Origin: an uncultured Candidatus Saccharibacteria bacterium | GTDB taxonomy: Bacteria; Patescibacteriota; Minisyncoccia; Phycocordibacterales; Phycocordibacteraceae | NCBI GenBank assembly: GCA_964398815.1 | Contig: CAYNNZ010000004.1 | Span: 8,074 to 72,073, forward strand | DNA: 64,000 nucleotides | Reading direction: 5' to 3' | Shown here: piece by piece, positions 39,959 to 47,165 of the stretch | Layout: each line of letters begins with the position of its first letter | How positions within the stretch are numbered: position 1 is the first letter of the stretch | The notes under the pieces: model-generated | The model's database searches: none | Told to the model about the DNA's origin: nothing | The model's input: only the letters and a program-made list of their open reading frames with translations | Translations under genes and position numbers: made by a program

Positions 39959-41320
39959 CTACGTCGGCAGGTTAGACGGCGCTTCGGAGGTCGAGGATTG
40001 TATACGCGGTAGCGACGGCGTTGTGACGCCCGATGATGGGATATGGAATATCGTCGCGAGCTCTTCAGTGTTCATGACCTGCCATGGCATCTTGTACGGC
40101 TCATTGAAGTAGGAACGGCGGCGGTATGAGTCCACCAGTCCATGCGCGGAATGGTGATGATGATGGCCCTTCGGGTCCTCCCATGGCCAGTCATCGAAAT
40201 TGGCAAACCAGCGCGTAATACCGAATGAATTACCCTGCGCGGACGCGATTGGATTCCAAAGTCCGATAAGGTGCGAGACGACGATACCCTGATAGGCATC
40301 CTTCGGTGCGGTGTAAATAGAGCGAATGCCCACATCGAAGAGCGGCTTACTGAGTTTGCGCTCGAGCGCCTCCATCTGATTCATCTGGCCCTTTGTGGGG
40401 TTCGGGAAGCTTTCCGTCTCGAATGTCTTGCCGGTCGCTGGGTCCACATGGGTCTGCTTACGCGTAATTGACTTGCGGATTGCCTCAAGCTCTTCGTTCT
40501 TCTCGTCGAATATCGTGTACTGCTTACCGGAAGAATTCTTCTTGCCGATGTATTTATCATCCTTGGTCACGCGTACGAGGATTTGAATCCAGAATTGCTC
40601 TTTAGGCGAAAGCGAGCCAAGCATTTCGAATATCTGAGCAAGCGGATCGACCTGCTCTTCAGGCTTCGCGAGTGGCGAATCCGGCTTCATGAACTCAGCG
40701 TAGGTGCGAATTGGATAGACATCCTTCGCCGTGAATTTATACTCGCAGCCCCACAAATCCCAATCATGTGCGGTGGGGTCTACCTTGAGGCTGTAGTCTT
40801 CCGCTTCAATGATTTCAACGCCAGGGTACTGCGCATAGATATAGCTCTCGAGACCACGACGGAAGCCGACGCGCGTACGAACGAATAGATGCACGCGTCC
40901 ACCGAGCGAGACGATTTCATAGGACCACGATGGGCGTACCGCACCTATCACGAGACGCTTCCACCACGTGGATTCTCCCGGACGAAGGTGCATGGACGAG
41001 AACACAGCCTCCATCGCGAGTGGCGTCTTGCGGACGTCGCGCGGAATGCGGATTTCGAGCAGGACGTACTCCTGGCGAGCAATGAACGCGAGGCGGTTCG
41101 CAGTCACCCAACGTAGGAATGCGAATTTTCCGAGGACAATCGGGAGCCAGAGCGGCGAGATGACCGCAAGAAATTCAATGTTCCGCCACGTCTGGAGCGG
41201 GTCGAGCGTGAGGAATGCAATATTCGCCGCAATGAAGCAGATAATGAACGGCTGCGCAGAGACGAATATGCCTCGCTGGTGCGCAGCATGCAGGATGTCG
41301 AACCCGCCTCCGGAACTCAT
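39959..41320 (-). CDS. Hypothetical membrane protein (N-terminal TM helices plus large soluble domain; internal His5 run)
   Basis: 453-aa ORF. No confidently recognised family. Confidence 0.55.
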   Translation of the reverse strand: MSSGGGFDILHAAHQRGIFVSAQPFIICFIAANIAFLTLDPLQTWRNIEFLAVISPLWLPIVLGKFAFLRWVTANRLAFIARQEYVLLEIRIPRDVRKTPLAMEAVFSSMHLRPGESTWWKRLVIGAVRPSWSYEIVSLGGRVHLFVRTRVGFRRGLESYIYAQYPGVEIIEAEDYSLKVDPTAHDWDLWGCEYKFTAKDVYPIRTYAEFMKPDSPLAKPEEQVDPLAQIFEMLGSLSPKEQFWIQILVRVTKDDKYIGKKNSSGKQYTIFDEKNEELEAIRKSITRKQTHVDPATGKTFETESFPNPTKGQMNQMEALERKLSKPLFDVGIRSIYTAPKDAYQGIVVSHLIGLWNPIASAQGNSFGITRWFANFDDWPWEDPKGHHHHHSAHGLVDSYRRRSYFNEPYKMPWQVMNTEELATIFHIPSSGVTTPSLPRIQSSTSEAPSNLPT

Positions 41321-41377: not shown

Positions 41378-42445
41378 TTAAACAGCGGAGTAGGTGCCGT
41401 CTTTCGCCTTCTTGAAATAGCGCGTGTCGTTGAGGTTCACGAGGATGGTGTTGTCCTTCACATAGCGAACTTTCTTCACTGCTTCGATGACCTCGTCGCG
41501 CGTAAGTGCCTTGCCTGCGAGCACCTTCTTGATGACATCGCGCACGACACCTGGCTGGTAGCCCCACTCAGCGAGCGCGTAGAGACCGCGACCGACAAGC
41601 ACGAAACGAGAGTCCTTGATGAGCTCATTGTGCGTCGTTGCAACATGCGCCTTCTTGGAGAAGGTCTCGCTGATAGCCTTCGCCACATCAGAGAAGTGCA
41701 TCGGGGAGCCCTCCTTCTTAATGACGAGGTAGGCATAATCGCGAATACCCTTGGTGCGGATAGCAGGCGCGTGCGCCTTACCCCACTCAGCAAGCGGGTT
41801 CTTCGCGATGTTCTTTGAGATAGAAAGCCAACGCTTGAGGATTTCCTCATTGCGGTATGCAGCGTTCACCTCCTTGAGCTCCTCGAGGAACTTGTTGATG
41901 ATTTCACCTTCCGGAAGAACCTCAGCATCATCGAGCTGCGCGTAGAGACGCGTAAGCGCTGCATGGACCATGTCCGCAGTGCGGGAGTCGACATGCCAAC
42001 GTGCATAGAAATCATCGGTCTCGCGCTCGCGGAAGAACGCAGAACCGACTACGAGGAGAAAACGAAAACGGTTGCGGCTCTTCTCGTCAGACGCGAGGCC
42101 TGCGAGAAGCGCATCCTCAGGGACGATGGCGCCCTGCGCGTCGATGTAGGCGCGAAGCTCCTCAAAGGAACCCTCTACCTCACGGAACGCACGGGAGTGG
42201 CGGATGGCCTCAATGCCGGATGCCTCAATCTGGCGGACGCGCTCGCGCGTGATGCCCCAGCGCTCGCCAATGGCCTCGAGAGTCTCGCGCTCAGAGGAAG
42301 TGCCCAGTCCAAAGCGATAGACCAGGACCTCGCGGGCACGCTCAGGCACCTCCGCGAGGAGCTTCTTCACGAGGGCAGCGCTGTCGAACGAGAGCGAGCT
42401 CTTCGCCTTGCTGACCGCCTTTGATTTAGCCACTTTTTTCGCCAT
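41378..42445 (-). CDS. DNA-binding protein with sigma-70 region-4-like HTH (N-terminal) and HARE-HTH-like winged helix (C-terminal)
   Basis: ERAREVLVYRFGLGTSSERETLEAIGERWGITRERVRQIEASGIEAIRH is sigma70_r4-like. C-terminal FSDVAKAISE...ELIKDSRFVLVGRGLYALAEWGY is HARE-HTH-like. Confidence 0.6.
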   Translation of the reverse strand: MAKKVAKSKAVSKAKSSLSFDSAALVKKLLAEVPERAREVLVYRFGLGTSSERETLEAIGERWGITRERVRQIEASGIEAIRHSRAFREVEGSFEELRAYIDAQGAIVPEDALLAGLASDEKSRNRFRFLLVVGSAFFRERETDDFYARWHVDSRTADMVHAALTRLYAQLDDAEVLPEGEIINKFLEELKEVNAAYRNEEILKRWLSISKNIAKNPLAEWGKAHAPAIRTKGIRDYAYLVIKKEGSPMHFSDVAKAISETFSKKAHVATTHNELIKDSRFVLVGRGLYALAEWGYQPGVVRDVIKKVLAGKALTRDEVIEAVKKVRYVKDNTILVNLNDTRYFKKAKDGTYSAV

Positions 42446-42508: not shown

Positions 42509-45346
42509 TTAGACCACAAGATTGAGGATTCGGCCGGGCACGTAAATGACACGTGAAGGCCTCACTTTACCAAGTGAAGTCTTCACACTGGCAATCTGGA
42601 TGGCCATATCCACTGCATCTGCCTCGGATGCATCCGGAGCGATGGTTATTTCCCCACGTTTCTTGCCGTTTACCTGCACGGTAAGCACCACCTCATCTGC
42701 GACGAGAAGCGACTCATCCGCTGTCGGCCATGCCGCAGCGTGGACACTTCCCTCTTCTCCCAGAGTGCCCCAGAGATGCTCTGTGAGATGCGGAGCAAAC
42801 GGTGCGAGCAAAACCAGAAGGGTACGAACTGCCTGTCGCGGTACCGCTGGCAGTGCTTCGAGGTCGCGCACGAGCACCATGAGCGCAGAGAGGGCGGTAT
42901 TGAATTTAAAGCGGTCGATTTCGCCAGTTACTTTACTCGTCGCCAGTGCGAGTGCGCGTAGTGTTGCTTCGTTCGGCTCGCTGTCGTCTGCCTTACTGGC
43001 GAGTGCATACACGCGATCGAGGAATTTGCGCATCGACAGCGTTCCGTCCAGATTCCATGGGTAGTGACCTGGCTCGTTATATGGACCGATGAATGCGAGG
43101 TACATGCGCACCGCGTCAGCGCCGAATTTCGCCACTACTTCGTCCGGGTTCACGACATTCCCCTTCGACTTACTCATCTTCGCGCCGTCCGTGCCGAGCA
43201 CGATGCCGCGATTGAATCGTTCGGAGAATGGTTCCGACACCGGTGAGAGTGCGAGGTCGTAGAGCACCTTCGTAAAGAACCGTGCATACAGGAGATGCAT
43301 CGTTGTGTGCTCGCTGCCGCCTGAGTAGCGGTCTATCGGCATCCACTTCTTCATGAGCGCAGCGTCGGAGAAATCATGCTCATCCTTCGGGTCGAGATAG
43401 CGGAAGAAATACCAGGATGAGTCTACGAAGGTATCGAGCGTGTCGTATTCCGGTGTCCAGCCTTCGCCGAATATGCGCGTAACGCGCTCCTGGAGTTCTT
43501 TAGAAGACGCGAGCGGGGACTTTCCTTCGCCTGCAGCACCCGGCGTCATGTCGACATCTTCCGGAAGCAACCACGGGAGATGCTCAGATGGGATAGGGTG
43601 CGGATTACCTTCTGGGTCATAGACGACCGGTATCGGACAGCCCCAGTATCGCTGTCGACCAACTGACCAATCGCGTATACGGAACTGCTTCACCCGCTCG
43701 CCTCCGGCGGCCTCAGCGATATCCCAGATGGCTTCGCGGTTTGGCTTTCCGGTAAAGTCTCCGGAATTCGTGAGCAGACCATCGCCAGTGTAATGACCCT
43801 TTCCGAGGAATCGGGCGAGTGCGTACTGATGCTGGTCATCATGTATCTCCTTCACCGCAACCTCCGGCGTTACCCACTCCACGGTGAATTTACCCTTCTC
43901 ATCTTCTTCGAGCTCCTGCTCGCTCTGTGTATCGGATGCGAGCTTGAAATGCAGAATGGTCGTATGCGCGAGCGTTGCTTGATTCTTCGAGAATGCAAAA
44001 TAGGAATGATGGACCTTTTCGTCCGCACGTTCGATGAGCTCTAATTCCTTGTAGCCGGTCTCTTCGCCTATTTCTCGGCTCGCGGTAATTGCTGGGTCTT
44101 CACCCTCATTTACTGTCCCGCCCACGAGCAGGCGCCCACCGAGCTCTTTCGGCCAGTTGATGGTGAGCACTTTACCGTTGTGCTCGACAACGGCGACGAT
44201 TTTCTCCTTATGTTTCGGGTCGACTTGCTCTTCACCGGTAATCGGGTCGATGACGTAGCGAATTGGTAGGTTGTACTTCTTCGCGAACTCATAATCGCGC
44301 TCGTCGTGCGCAGGCACCGCCATAACAGCGCCTGTACCGTATGAGGCAAGTACGTAATCAGCGACATAGACCGGAATGGATTCCTTGGTCGCAGGGTTTG
44401 TTGCAGTGAGGCCATCGAGCACCACACCAGTCTTCTCTTTGTTCTCACTGCGCTCGCGCTCGGTCTTCTTCCCGGTCGCCTTCTGATATGCGCGAACCGC
44501 ATCGACATTGGTCGCGTGCGCAAGAAGCGATTCGAGTGCCGGGTGCTCCGGAGCGAGTACGAGGTAGGTGGCGCCATAGAGGGTGTCAGGACGGGTAGTG
44601 AACACCTGGATATCCGTAGTCTCCGATCCAGTCGCAACCGGGAATGTAATTTTCGCGCCGTCTGACTGCCCTATCCACGCGCGCTGCGCTTCTTTTATCT
44701 CATTCGGCCAGGCGAGCCCGTCGAGGTCAGCAAGGAGACGCTCCGCGTACGCGGTGATTTTGAGGAACCACTGCGTGAGCATCTTGTCTTCGACTTCATG
44801 TCCGCAGCGTTCGCATTTTCCATCCACTACCTGCTCGTTGGCGAGCACCGTCTTATCATTCGGGCACCACTTCACCGATGCGAGCCTGCGCTCTGCGAGT
44901 CCGTGCTCGAGGAACTTCGTGAAGAGCCACTGCGTCCACTTGTAGTAGGAAGGGTCGCAGGTGATGACTTCCTTCGACCAATCCATGGATGCGCCCATCG
45001 TCTCCAGCTGGCGACGCATGTTCGCCATGTTGTCGTAGGTCCATTTCTTCGGGTCGAGACCACGCTTTATCGCCGCATTCTCAGCCGGCAGCCCGAACGC
45101 GTCGAATCCCATCGGGAAGAGTACGTTCTTCCCTGCCATGCGCAGTTTGCGGGCGTAGATGTCCGTAAGTGCGAACGCATACCAGTGCCCGATATGCAGA
45201 TCTCCTGATGGATACGGAAATTCAAAGAGGAGGTAGTACTTCTCTTTGGTCTCATCCGTGAGGTCGGTCTCGTACAGATTGAGGCCTGCCCACTTTTGGC
45301 GGGCTGCCTGTTCTATCTCTACGTGATTGAACGACTCTCGCGCCAT
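42509..45346 (-). CDS. leuS: Leucyl-tRNA synthetase with a NUDIX hydrolase domain inserted in the CP1/editing region
   Basis: HIGH (PSGDLHIGHWYAF), TTRPDT editing motif, AVMAVPAHDERD, KMSKS (GAKMSKSKGNVV) and C-terminal VIYVPGRILNLVV. 945 aa, with a roughly 150-aa insertion between PIRYVIDPITGEE and GDGLLTNSGDFTG. Confidence 0.9.
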   Translation of the reverse strand: MARESFNHVEIEQAARQKWAGLNLYETDLTDETKEKYYLLFEFPYPSGDLHIGHWYAFALTDIYARKLRMAGKNVLFPMGFDAFGLPAENAAIKRGLDPKKWTYDNMANMRRQLETMGASMDWSKEVITCDPSYYKWTQWLFTKFLEHGLAERRLASVKWCPNDKTVLANEQVVDGKCERCGHEVEDKMLTQWFLKITAYAERLLADLDGLAWPNEIKEAQRAWIGQSDGAKITFPVATGSETTDIQVFTTRPDTLYGATYLVLAPEHPALESLLAHATNVDAVRAYQKATGKKTERERSENKEKTGVVLDGLTATNPATKESIPVYVADYVLASYGTGAVMAVPAHDERDYEFAKKYNLPIRYVIDPITGEEQVDPKHKEKIVAVVEHNGKVLTINWPKELGGRLLVGGTVNEGEDPAITASREIGEETGYKELELIERADEKVHHSYFAFSKNQATLAHTTILHFKLASDTQSEQELEEDEKGKFTVEWVTPEVAVKEIHDDQHQYALARFLGKGHYTGDGLLTNSGDFTGKPNREAIWDIAEAAGGERVKQFRIRDWSVGRQRYWGCPIPVVYDPEGNPHPIPSEHLPWLLPEDVDMTPGAAGEGKSPLASSKELQERVTRIFGEGWTPEYDTLDTFVDSSWYFFRYLDPKDEHDFSDAALMKKWMPIDRYSGGSEHTTMHLLYARFFTKVLYDLALSPVSEPFSERFNRGIVLGTDGAKMSKSKGNVVNPDEVVAKFGADAVRMYLAFIGPYNEPGHYPWNLDGTLSMRKFLDRVYALASKADDSEPNEATLRALALATSKVTGEIDRFKFNTALSALMVLVRDLEALPAVPRQAVRTLLVLLAPFAPHLTEHLWGTLGEEGSVHAAAWPTADESLLVADEVVLTVQVNGKKRGEITIAPDASEADAVDMAIQIASVKTSLGKVRPSRVIYVPGRILNLVV
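43787..44254 (-). other. NUDIX hydrolase domain inserted within leuS (Nudix box at 44051..44122)
   Basis: Own translation of the minus strand gives GGTVNEGEDPAITASREIGEETGY, a perfect match to the Nudix box Gx5Ex7REUxEExGU. It is flanked by beta-strand-like segments (KIVAVVEHNGKVLTINWPK ... FTVEWVTPEVAV). Confidence 0.85.
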
Positions 45347-46388: not shown

Positions 46389-47078
46389 TCATGAAGAGTC
46401 GGCGGGCGTCTCGCGTGCGGCGAATAGTTCAGCTATGAGATCACTGACCAGTGGATAAAGTTCCTGGTCAAAGAGCGAAATGGGCGCACTTTTATCCTTA
46501 CCAAAGACCGATGTTTGGAGTTCATTGTACTCGGCCTCACTGAACGCAATGCCGAGGTAGCGGTTCCATTCGCAGCCGATATACATGCTCCAGTCGATGG
46601 CCCTGTCGTCTGTCAGACTGTACGTATTCCACGCATGGAGCATAGGGTTGGCCAGGTAACCGCAGACCATACCCTCCACGTAGCACAGACGGTTAGTGTC
46701 CTTATGCCGTCTTGCACCTTTATTGACGTTTCGCATCCACACCTGCGAATTGCCGAAGCATTCGCCGGCGAGAGGCTGACGGGGGAAGGTTCGGAATTTT
46801 GGTGATAATTCTGGAGTGGAGCGGTAATGGCGTCCTTGTTTCAGCAAGAGTTCAAGAGCATCCGGATGAAAGACGCACTTTCCAGGCATCGATGGTTGCA
46901 GCGCGAAGCCACTCCTCATGTGGGCGAGTTCAACGAGGGCGATATGCCCGATGAGACTATCGTGGCCGTCCGGAAAGTTCTGACTGAACCACTCATCAGC
47001 CTTGAACTTAAATTCTGGGTCCTCGTAGACGTAGTTCCATGCCTCCTCGTAGGAGGTGAAGGGTTCTTGGTCGGACAT
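46389..47078 (-). CDS. Hypothetical protein; weak transglutaminase-like/papain-fold Cys-His-Asp pattern
   Basis: Start at MSDQEPF. Segment C-x3-G...CYVEGMVCGY...HAWN...DDRAIDW is loosely reminiscent of a transglutaminase-like core. Assignment is tentative. Confidence 0.45.
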   Translation of the reverse strand: MSDQEPFTSYEEAWNYVYEDPEFKFKADEWFSQNFPDGHDSLIGHIALVELAHMRSGFALQPSMPGKCVFHPDALELLLKQGRHYRSTPELSPKFRTFPRQPLAGECFGNSQVWMRNVNKGARRHKDTNRLCYVEGMVCGYLANPMLHAWNTYSLTDDRAIDWSMYIGCEWNRYLGIAFSEAEYNELQTSVFGKDKSAPISLFDQELYPLVSDLIAELFAARETPADSS

Positions 47079-47165
47079 GTTCACCTCCTTGGCTGTCCGC
47101 CTGCAATAGAACACGAACGGGATGGAAAGTAAATCGACGCCAGGGTAACCGTATATACTTTAGGA

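Follow-up and report, generated by a model that had tools for sequence, protein, structure and literature searches.

Architecture of the leuS locus

The analysed window of 64,000 nucleotides carries on its reverse strand a leuS gene for a bacterial-type leucyl-tRNA synthetase (LeuRS) of 945 aa, in which a Nudix domain is nested (Table 1). The product scored 871.1 bits against the TIGR00396 leuS_bact equivalog HMM (cut-off 548.4), and its predicted structure was matched by Foldseek to E. coli LeuRS-tRNA complexes with TM-scores of 0.79-0.80.

Table 1. Features of the leuS gene and of the nested Nudix cassette (coordinates refer to the window).
Feature	Residues (aa)	Coordinates	Strand	Evidence
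leuS ORF, bacterial-type LeuRS with nested Nudix	945 in total	42509..45346	-	ORF call, TIGR00396, Foldseek
HIGH signature, class I catalytic site	51-54	45185..45196	-	motif; H51, G53 and H54 invariant in alignment A1
CP1 editing domain, portion N-terminal to insert	222-365	44252..44683	-	PF13603
Thr-rich editing motif TTRPDT	250-255	44582..44599	-	motif, conservation
VPAHDERD editing-site motif with conserved Asp residues	344-351	44294..44317	-	motif, conservation
Exchangeable Nudix cassette with linkers, out of CP1 beta-hairpin	366-520	43787..44251	-	breakpoints, deletion, alignment, DSSP
Nudix domain, Pfam PF00293	386-511	43814..44191	-	HMM match, pLDDT 93, Nudix fold
Nudix box GTVNEGEDPAITASREIGEETGY, catalytic metal-binding helix	410-432	44051..44119	-	pattern Gx5Ex7REUxEExGU
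Family-specific motif FSKNQA with K454		43976..43993	-	K454 in 117/117
Family-specific motif E483...W491 (EKGKFTVEW)	483-491	43874..43900	-	E483 in 115/117, W491 in 116/117
CP1 editing domain, portion C-terminal to insert	521-556	43679..43786	-	alignment to T. thermophilus LeuRS
KMSKS loop, without preceding leucine-specific domain	723-727	43166..43180	-	motif, T. thermophilus alignment, relatives

The synthetase and editing machinery

In the initial annotation leuS had been described as otherwise canonical in its HIGH, TTRPDT, VPAHDERD and KMSKS motifs. All four were located, and the catalytic and editing positions are invariant in relatives: T250, T251, R252, D254 and T255 show no variation across 117 sequences, P345, A346, H347, D348, R350 and D351 are invariant in alignment A1, and the same holds for G523, R556, R558 and D559. 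The PF13603 match of the CP1 editing domain (aa 222-377) covers profile positions 1-151 of 185, and from aa 519 on the protein corresponds to T. thermophilus (Tt) LeuRS from residue 377 on. HIGH, KMSKS, the Thr-rich and Asp editing motifs, the fold and the C-terminal tRNA-binding domain are common to this LeuRS and to the enzymes of T. thermophilus (1h3n/2byt) and E. coli (4aq7/4arc). Judged by its residues, the host would be a functional, editing-competent LeuRS apart from the insert; the genome is that of a member of the Paceibacteria (CPR/Patescibacteria).

Two differences from Tt LeuRS were found. A 147-aa Nudix domain stands in place of an 8-residue CP1 hairpin loop (Tt 369-376), and the leucine-specific domain (Tt ~595-635) has no counterpart in the alignment. 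The latter domain precedes KMSKS in E. coli and T. thermophilus LeuRS and is not universal; it is missing from all close relatives, whether they bear a Nudix domain or not. Compensation by the Nudix domain for a lost leucine-specific domain was ruled out by this distribution, and compensation for a lost editing site by the invariant editing motifs.

The nested Nudix domain

The insertion of about 150 aa noticed earlier in CP1 proved to be real. Its borders were set by the breakpoints in P0005/P0112 and P0003/P0064, by the deletion in P0068 and by the alignment to Tt LeuRS, and DSSP assigned strands to residues 366-371 and 523-525 on either side of the cassette. The PF00293 search that the initial annotation had proposed gave 47.4 bits for the insert alone and 42.3 bits for the whole LeuRS (gathering cut-off 21.1), with profile positions 10-132 of 134 matched. 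This near-full coverage and the predicted structure of the insert, an alpha/beta/alpha sandwich with a pLDDT of 93, bear out the complete Nudix fold that had been surmised. According to the model, the domain is one that folds on its own.

The Nudix box, earlier called perfect, follows the canonical pattern and is strongly conserved. Among family members E425, E428 and E429 were found in 117 of 117, G410 in 116, and R424 and E416 in 107 and 106, respectively; the full canonical box is present in 106 of the 120 copies of the window's own family. The xKxx[N/A] motif around K454 recurs in 158 of 163 Nudix copies of the wider family. E483 is likely to be an additional active-site Glu of the domain, and W398 is another conserved residue peculiar to this family. 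On these grounds the nested domain is apparently complete and catalytically competent.

An intein or transposon was ruled out. No Hint/intein family was found in the Pfam scan of LeuRS, and the DNA check of the insert borders revealed no target-site duplications and no meaningful direct, inverted or terminal repeats. The junctions read ...VIDPITGEE and ...GKGHYTGDG, without intein splice-junction residues, and the GC content of the insert dips only slightly (0.53 vs 0.57).

Distribution, exchange and loss of the Nudix family

The family survey comprised the best 150 of about 500 matches (E<=1e-10). The taxonomy of relatives was taken from source names only, and neighbour-joining trees were calculated from simple distances, without support values. 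The ortholog search suggested in the initial annotation detected the same insertion in LeuRS of more than 110 independent clusters, and an assembly chimera was ruled out by this recurrence of the architecture. Members of the family are nested at no fewer than five LeuRS loops, with one to three copies per LeuRS, as well as inside DPANN-type ProRS. The same family also occurs as free-standing genes of about 160 aa, and 4 of the 8 examined adjoin leuS, valS or argS. Moreover, stand-alone CP1-like proteins of about 275 aa (P0225, P0244, P0265) bear the Nudix domain in this CP1 loop as well, and their Thr-rich motif is degenerate. Among the best 150 of the ~500 family matches there were essentially no hosts other than aminoacyl-tRNA synthetases (aaRSs). 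P0001, a fragment-like sequence of 154 aa with LeuRS-type flanks, was the sole match when the word-indexed search was performed with the insert alone.

Other domains are nested in sister LeuRS and IleRS proteins, namely HAD, Ham1/ITPase, alpha/beta-hydrolase and His_Phos. Co-nesting was observed for Ham1/ITPase in P0178, for HAD in P0194, P0139 and P0044, and for His_Phos_1 in the IleRS of L006. The free member P0189 lies 4 bp past Fpg/MutM, with RuvA and PolA close by, in two genomes; this linkage is a functional hint only. Another free member, P0212, lies near Tmk, another Nudix gene and dUTPase.

Clean loss of the Nudix domain from LeuRS, with leuS left undisturbed, has occurred at least twice in close relatives; in P0068 the remaining loop reads ESDEEL. 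In addition, LeuRS cores with 93% identity were found to carry Nudix cassettes with 21% identity, separated by sharp breakpoints. These sequence comparisons indicate that the module is swapped by recombination between LeuRS hosts and is sometimes cleanly deleted. In the relative L010 (98% identical), all 56 leuS differences are confined to the first 678 nt, which seem to form a recombination tract, with no difference in the remaining 2,160 nt. The dN/dS of the insert is uninformative against L010 because no substitutions fall in the insert; residue conservation was used instead because dS would be saturated in more distant relatives.

Indications of the substrate

None of the NCBIfam equivalogs reached its cut-off with the Nudix domain; the best was NudB with 27 bits (cut-off 103). 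MutT 8-oxo-dGTP diphosphatase (NF008044) scored 13 bits (cut-off 148) and RppH (NF001938) 21.3 bits (cut-off 116), the latter with a match that spans the Nudix box only. ADP-ribose pyrophosphatases have a Pro 15-16 residues past the Nudix box. This residue is missing here, with H447 at +15 and S448 at +16, and Pro is not frequent at these positions in the family. According to a rule reported by Dunn et al. (1999), asymmetric Ap4A/ApnA Nudix hydrolases carry a Tyr 16-18 residues past the box; Y449 is at +17, and this position is Tyr in 86 and Phe in 31 of 117 relatives. The closest solved structure is 2azw, an E. faecalis MutT/Nudix protein without assigned function, followed by the Ndx1 Ap6A hydrolase, DDP1/DIPP1, Rv2985 and the lupin Ap4A hydrolase; MutT-type and ADP-sugar enzymes reached nearly equal structural scores. 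Our guess at the substrate class is ApnA-type by-products or damaged or non-canonical NTPs.

Interpretation

The occurrence at many sites, the swaps, the losses and the adjacent free genes favour an autonomous accessory enzyme over built-in proofreading. Therefore, the insert is best interpreted as an autonomous, exchangeable, aaRS-associated Nudix pyrophosphohydrolase module on the surface tip of the CP1 hairpin, outside the proofreading chemistry of LeuRS (estimated probability about 0.7). In the proposed mechanism the Nudix domain would fold independently of LeuRS, and its Nudix-box Glu residues together with Mg2+ would, as their conservation suggests, hydrolyse a diffusible nucleoside-polyphosphate compound. 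Positional promiscuity points to action in trans, so that the tether to, or co-expression with, an aaRS would provide proximity or stoichiometry and no set inter-domain geometry. The substrate may be dinucleoside polyphosphates (Ap4A/ApnA) made by the aaRSs themselves or damaged and non-canonical NTPs, removed by MutT-like or ITPase-like house-cleaning. Some observations weigh against an autonomous module. The confinement of hosts to aaRSs argues for a specific functional coupling that it leaves unexplained, and fast cassette turnover is unusual in a plain housekeeping enzyme. Gene adjacency is weaker evidence in compact CPR genomes than in larger ones, and the free copies beside leuS could be products of local duplication rather than of function. 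A geometry-dependent role of the domain at this particular CP1 site is also conceivable.

In the initial annotation the Nudix domain had been proposed as a built-in pre-transfer editing activity that destroys misactivated aminoacyl-AMP. Nva-AMP or Ile-AMP released from the synthetic site would be examples of such substrates. The host is an aaRS that edits, the insert sits within its editing domain, and the conservation of the catalytic Nudix residues would fit as well, but the post-transfer editing site of CP1 is intact, the same family occupies other LeuRS loops (at least five), ProRS and separate genes beside valS and argS, and LeuRS cores that are nearly identical differ by loss or exchange of the domain. 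Furthermore, Nudix substrates are defined by a pyrophosphate linkage, which aminoacyl-AMP does not contain. This proposal was not supported and is considered very improbable; taken as a whole, the interpretation in the initial annotation is supported in part. A Nudix enzyme of RppH/NudC type that strips a 5' pyrophosphate or an NAD/Np4N cap off synthetase-bound RNA is improbable as well: RppH models score far under their cut-off, a bound tRNA end demands a defined geometry that the many insertion sites contradict, and a basic RNA-binding extension is not evident. Rapid cassette turnover would be accounted for by a non-catalytic domain that serves as ligand sensor, as dimerisation or regulatory module or as decoy in conflict-driven diversification; the invariant metal-binding Glu trio and the prevalence of the canonical box argue for retained catalysis and make such a role hardly likely.

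Two further readings are each possible, if tentative. aaRSs form dinucleoside polyphosphates from aminoacyl-AMP and ATP in a side reaction, and an ApnA/alarmone hydrolase truly coupled to aminoacylation would degrade Ap4A/Ap3A at source; this was the second suggestion in the initial annotation and is a sub-case of the autonomous module. The Phe in 31 of 117 members at position 449, the lack of an assigned function for 2azw, next to which MutT-type and ADP-sugar enzymes score nearly equally, and the dispensability of the domain in close relatives speak against it, as do the synthetases concerned: to our knowledge, ArgRS, encoded beside a free copy, makes no Ap4A without tRNA, and LeuRS is not one of the strong Ap4A producers. 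Alternatively, the domain could be a plain MutT-like enzyme that clears oxidised or non-canonical (d)NTPs and has no link to aminoacylation, fused only because big class I aaRSs can accommodate extra sequence in their loops and assure constitutive expression in a streamlined genome. The co-nested Ham1/ITPase, HAD and His_Phos_1 domains, the surroundings of P0189 and P0212 and the clean losses are in line with such house-cleaning, but it would lead one to expect non-aaRS hosts, which are essentially lacking among the best 150 of ~500 matches. Half of the eight free copies examined adjoin aaRS genes, the MutT equivalog score is far below its cut-off, and up to three copies per LeuRS are hard to square with piggy-backing for expression.

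A more far-reaching reading, which we regard as speculative and rather unlikely, is a dedicated system of aaRS-Nudix cassettes that can be exchanged horizontally, common to CPR bacteria and to DPANN archaea and functionally coupled to aminoacylation, with turnover driven by selection. It would embrace the companion HAD, ITPase and phosphatase modules, with LeuRS and ProRS as nested hosts and ValRS and ArgRS in cis. The coupling might consist, for example, in destroying ApnA/alarmone by-products or aberrant ATP analogues at source, and swapping and loss would result from selection, possibly conflict-driven, and not from neutral fusion.

Significance

aaRSs have classically acquired new functions by way of accessory domains, and CPR and DPANN are ultra-small symbiotic prokaryotes with minimal nucleotide metabolism. 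In the present case one Nudix family is associated, non-randomly and across domains of life, with both classes of synthetases in CPR and DPANN. If the cassette system were true, its modules would be catalytic accessory domains of a new class in the translation apparatus of ultra-small cells. If the autonomous module handles ApnA or damaged ATP, translation would be tied directly to nucleotide signalling or sanitation, and a tractable in vitro system with two activities on one polypeptide would be at hand. The nested domain also accounts for over-long LeuRS gene calls in metagenome-assembled genomes (MAGs) and exposes misannotations such as that of a LeuRS of 1,330 aa named RdgB/HAM1. Moreover, the mapped permissive LeuRS loops are natural domain-insertion sites of use in protein engineering.

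Comparison with known systems

A literature search retrieved no paper with a prior account of a Nudix domain nested in an aaRS, and as far as found, nested catalytic hydrolases in bacterial aaRSs are previously undescribed. Known Nudix proteins are free-standing or terminally fused, whereas this domain is nested within another enzyme; it has only about 20% identity to any solved structure, and its family has motifs of its own (W398, xK454xxN/A, E483, W491). Patchy occurrence, several sites in a conserved essential protein and cassette-like replacement are reminiscent of inteins and in-frame mobile insertions. Unlike an intein, the Nudix insert has a conserved enzyme fold and almost certainly stays in the mature product.

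A synthetase with an extra, independently folding domain is also seen in IleRS with an N-acetyltransferase (NF040702 ileS_w_GNAT) and in eukaryotic aaRSs, which carry appended GST, WHEP and EMAPII domains. In contrast to terminally appended domains, a nucleotide hydrolase is here placed in internal loops, varies in copy number and position and is swapped between near-identical hosts. Free-standing trans-editing proteins (AlaX, YbaK, ProX) and the split alpha/beta LeuRS of Aquifex are resembled by the stand-alone CP1-like members of the Nudix family, which differ from them in bearing the Nudix domain and a degenerate Thr-rich motif.

The leuS gene and its nested Nudix domain

The initial annotation had described an otherwise canonical leuS carrying a NUDIX insertion within one 945-aa frame, and this description was borne out: the frame is uninterrupted and the HIGH, TTRPDT, VPAHDERD and KMSKS motifs are all in place (see table). 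The product was assigned to the bacterial-type leucyl-tRNA synthetases (LeuRS) by TIGR00396 (871 bits, cut-off 548), and its AlphaFold model gave TM scores of 0.79-0.80 on superposition with E. coli LeuRS-tRNA complexes. The insert, located between PIRYVIDPITGEE (aa 361-373) and GDGLLTNSGDFTG (aa 521-533), breaks the editing-domain model of LeuRS at position 151 of its 185 and matched Pfam NUDIX, covering positions 10-132 of the 134 in that profile at 47.4 bits (cut-off 21.1); profile, box and fold all place it in the Nudix superfamily. Taken together, the data strongly indicate that the Nudix domain folds independently and retains an intact catalytic box, and that its host enzyme is intact as well. 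The host belongs to the bacterial LeuRS, though without the leucine-specific domain: the approximately 40 residues ahead of KMSKS in T. thermophilus (~595-635) and E. coli LeuRS have no counterpart in the LeuRS of the window (aa 711-733, 43148-43216, minus strand) or in any close relative, with or without Nudix domain.

The surroundings of leuS are ordinary Patescibacteria housekeeping genes, encoding MnmA, YceG, DUF8128, a Sigma70_r4/HARE-HTH protein, DUF5671, YchF and ATP synthase. The synteny of the gene pair downstream of leuS is retained in every related locus examined; its 453-aa member had no match in the Pfam-A scan, and the counterparts in related loci carry precomputed PF26449 (DUF8128) matches. 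The 241-aa ORF between the YchF and DUF5671 genes is a lineage-specific insertion; no gene of such size is present there in the otherwise syntenic related loci L011 and L012.

Conservation and hosts of the Nudix family

A protein identical to the LeuRS of the window is present in NCBI, ENA and Logan, and the search for orthologs with the same insertion, proposed in the initial annotation, returned 116 further clusters of the same architecture (61-76% identity), the named ones being Candidatus Paceibacterota, Parcubacteria or Kaiserbacteria according to source names. Across the 117 insert-bearing sequences the metal-binding residues E425, E428 and E429 and the family-specific K454 are invariant, G410, R424, E483 and W491 are almost invariant, and full invariance also holds for the catalytic and CP1 editing residues of LeuRS. 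Because of this conservation, the enzyme appears to be a working, editing-competent LeuRS whose Nudix active site is under purifying selection. Compared with a 98%-identical relative (L010:265-942 versus window 44669-45346, minus strand), all 56 nucleotide differences of leuS fall within the first 678 nt, with none in the other 2,160 nt or in the downstream flank; this suggests a recent recombination tract with its end inside leuS. Since this sole close relative differs only in the 5′ tract, dN/dS of the insert was uninformative.

The insert profile was searched against 1.84 billion representative proteins and yielded 152 matches at a threshold of E<=1e-30 and 511 when this was relaxed to E<=1e-10. 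Among the best 150 of these 511 matches, 115 were full or fragmentary LeuRS, 23 were free-standing proteins of ~160 aa with a Met start and no LeuRS flanks, five were short stand-alone CP1-like proteins with the Nudix domain in the same loop, four were ProRS or ProRS anticodon-binding domains and three fell outside these classes. The ProRS association is recurrent (clusters P0268 and P0281-P0284), the Nudix domain being placed between the anticodon-binding and C-terminal domains of an archaeal-type ProRS. As the nearest Nudix-less relatives of these ProRS are named Nanoarchaeota or Woesearchaeota in the sources, the Nudix family is suggested to be common to CPR bacteria and DPANN archaea. The stand-alone CP1-like proteins (P0225, P0244, P0265, P0209, P0270; ~206-281 aa, Met start, Nudix in the LeuRS-equivalent loop) have a degenerate Thr-rich motif, e.g. 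LTREELIYGA; they may represent CP1 paralogues that act in trans, or parts of a split LeuRS.

An aminoacyl-tRNA synthetase (aaRS) gene directly adjoins four of the eight free-standing members with known neighbourhood; that of P0208 is uninformative. If a genome of ~900 genes contains about 20 aaRS genes, the adjacency expected by chance is roughly 4-5% per gene, and by our own estimate (p about 3e-4) a chance origin of four in eight is unlikely. The evidence strongly indicates that this Nudix family is specifically linked with aaRS genes in evolution.

Insertion sites, loss and exchange of the module

Insertion sites were mapped onto the LeuRS numbering of the window. P0122 and P0123 carry three Nudix copies each; P0124 and P0177 lack a copy at ~370 but possess copies at ~210. 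A distance tree of the copies, without support values, intermingles those from different sites, and free forms with them, whereas it sets the ProRS-borne and the CP1-only copies apart as separate clades. In multi-copy LeuRS (P0122-P0125, P0128, P0132) one copy has the canonical box and the other usually a variant, with Gln for the Glu of Gx5E and Ala or Met for the Arg of RE (e.g. GGIEKGQTAEEAARMEIREETGY), an arrangement suggestive of a pseudo-heterodimeric pair. The variant box also occurs in several free-standing members.

The insert is missing in three close LeuRS relatives. In a LeuRS-core distance tree without support values these are nested among Nudix-bearing ones, P0068 as sister of the window and P0026, and P0101 grouped with P0003 and P0064. 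Because their loci are also fully syntenic with the window and no Nudix gene was found within 6 kb, the module has evidently been lost without trace on two occasions or more. Comparison of 115 insert-bearing LeuRS gave a unimodal distribution of core identity (65-75%) but a bimodal one of insert identity: inserts of different cassette types, of which there are four, share about 20-30%, and those of one type 60-80%. Core and insert identity correlate with r = 0.29 only, and 146 pairs combine cores >=74% identical with inserts <35% identical. P0005 and P0112 mark the extreme, where an identity of about 97% on either side of the module drops to 13-37% exactly across it. The module thus appears to be exchanged as a cassette by recombination inside a conserved frame, and its positional promiscuity, loss and swapping are strongly indicated. 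A reading as intein or mobile element was rejected, as the Pfam scan and junction residues gave no intein features and the window DNA around the insert has neither target duplications nor terminal repeats.

Further hydrolases are nested in Nudix-bearing LeuRS (see table), as are additional inserts of ~140-200 aa (e.g. P0190 aa 599-739, P0178 aa 617-779). MCK5490653.1 of the P0178 cluster, a 1,330-aa LeuRS with Nudix and Ham1 domains, is named 'RdgB/HAM1 family non-canonical purine NTP pyrophosphatase' at NCBI, a misannotation caused by the nested domain. The phosphatase-bearing IleRS of locus L006 follows ArgRS and a free Nudix; just upstream, the locus also encodes Tmk, a zeta-toxin-like kinase, a further Nudix and dUTPase.

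Features of the leuS locus, LeuRS insertion sites, and nested or free-standing domains in related clusters
Feature	Position	Strand	Remark
leuS ORF, 945 aa, single, uninterrupted	42509-45346	-	ORF call in window
HIGH	LeuRS aa 51-54		motif check
TTRPDT	LeuRS aa 250-255		motif check
VPAHDERD	LeuRS aa 344-351		motif check
KMSKS	LeuRS aa 723-727		motif check
Nudix box GTVNEGEDPAITASREIGEETGY	aa 410-432, nt 44051-44119	-	sole Nudix-box match in six-frame translation of entire window
Sigma70_r4 + HARE-HTH protein (355 aa) and 453-aa protein, conserved pair	39959-41320 and 41378-42445	-	downstream of leuS
241-aa ORF	46389-47114	-	between YchF and DUF5671 genes; no Pfam match
Insertion site	~210		Nudix single or tandem
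Insertion site	~245		Nudix in some LeuRS, other inserts in others
Insertion site	~370		site of the window; tandem in P0131
Insertion site	~580		Nudix in P0162
Insertion site	~620		Nudix in P0132
Alpha/beta serine hydrolase (Ser_hydrolase)	P0171 aa 238-400		in Nudix-bearing LeuRS
HAD	P0194 aa 245-416; P0139 aa 653-808; P0044 aa 386-540		in Nudix-bearing LeuRS
Ham1/ITPase	P0178 aa 984-1167		in Nudix-bearing LeuRS
IleRS-like gene with nested His_Phos_1 phosphatase (aa 523-675, 107 bits)	L006:5094-8498	+	domain match
Free Nudix P0148	one base before leuS with own nested copy		locus syntenic with window
Free Nudix P0200	two bases before insert-less leuS		two NCBI assemblies
Free Nudix P0184	4 bp before valS		closest free relative of window insert type, 46%
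Free Nudix P0212	12 bp after argS		two genes before phosphatase-bearing IleRS
Free Nudix P0189	4 bp after Fpg/MutM		near RuvA and PolA; two genomes
Free Nudix P0158	beside another Nudix		
Free Nudix P0239	near Sua5		

Proposed function

The Nudix domain would hydrolyse a diffusible nucleoside-polyphosphate substrate in trans, and what it gains from being tethered to an aaRS, or co-expressed with one, may be proximity or stoichiometry and not a fixed geometry. The leading idea of the initial annotation, that the domain hydrolyses misactivated aminoacyl-AMP as built-in pre-transfer editing, is disfavoured, because aminoacyl-AMP, unlike Nudix substrates, has no pyrophosphate bond, the CP1 editing site is intact, and the module varies in position as well as in presence or absence. 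The insert reached the cut-off of neither the MutT nor the RppH equivalog model and does not follow the downstream-Pro rule for ADPRases. Asymmetric Ap4A/ApnA hydrolases have a Tyr 16-18 residues after the box; at +17 the window has Y449, and of the 117 relatives 86 carry Tyr and 31 Phe there.

Comparison with known systems

In the full-text literature searched, no description was found of catalytic Nudix domains that occupy internal aaRS loops at varying sites and in varying numbers and are swapped between near-identical hosts. The sequences are already public with precomputed PF00293 matches. Extra domains as such are known in aaRSs, e.g. GNAT in IleRS (NCBIfam NF040702).
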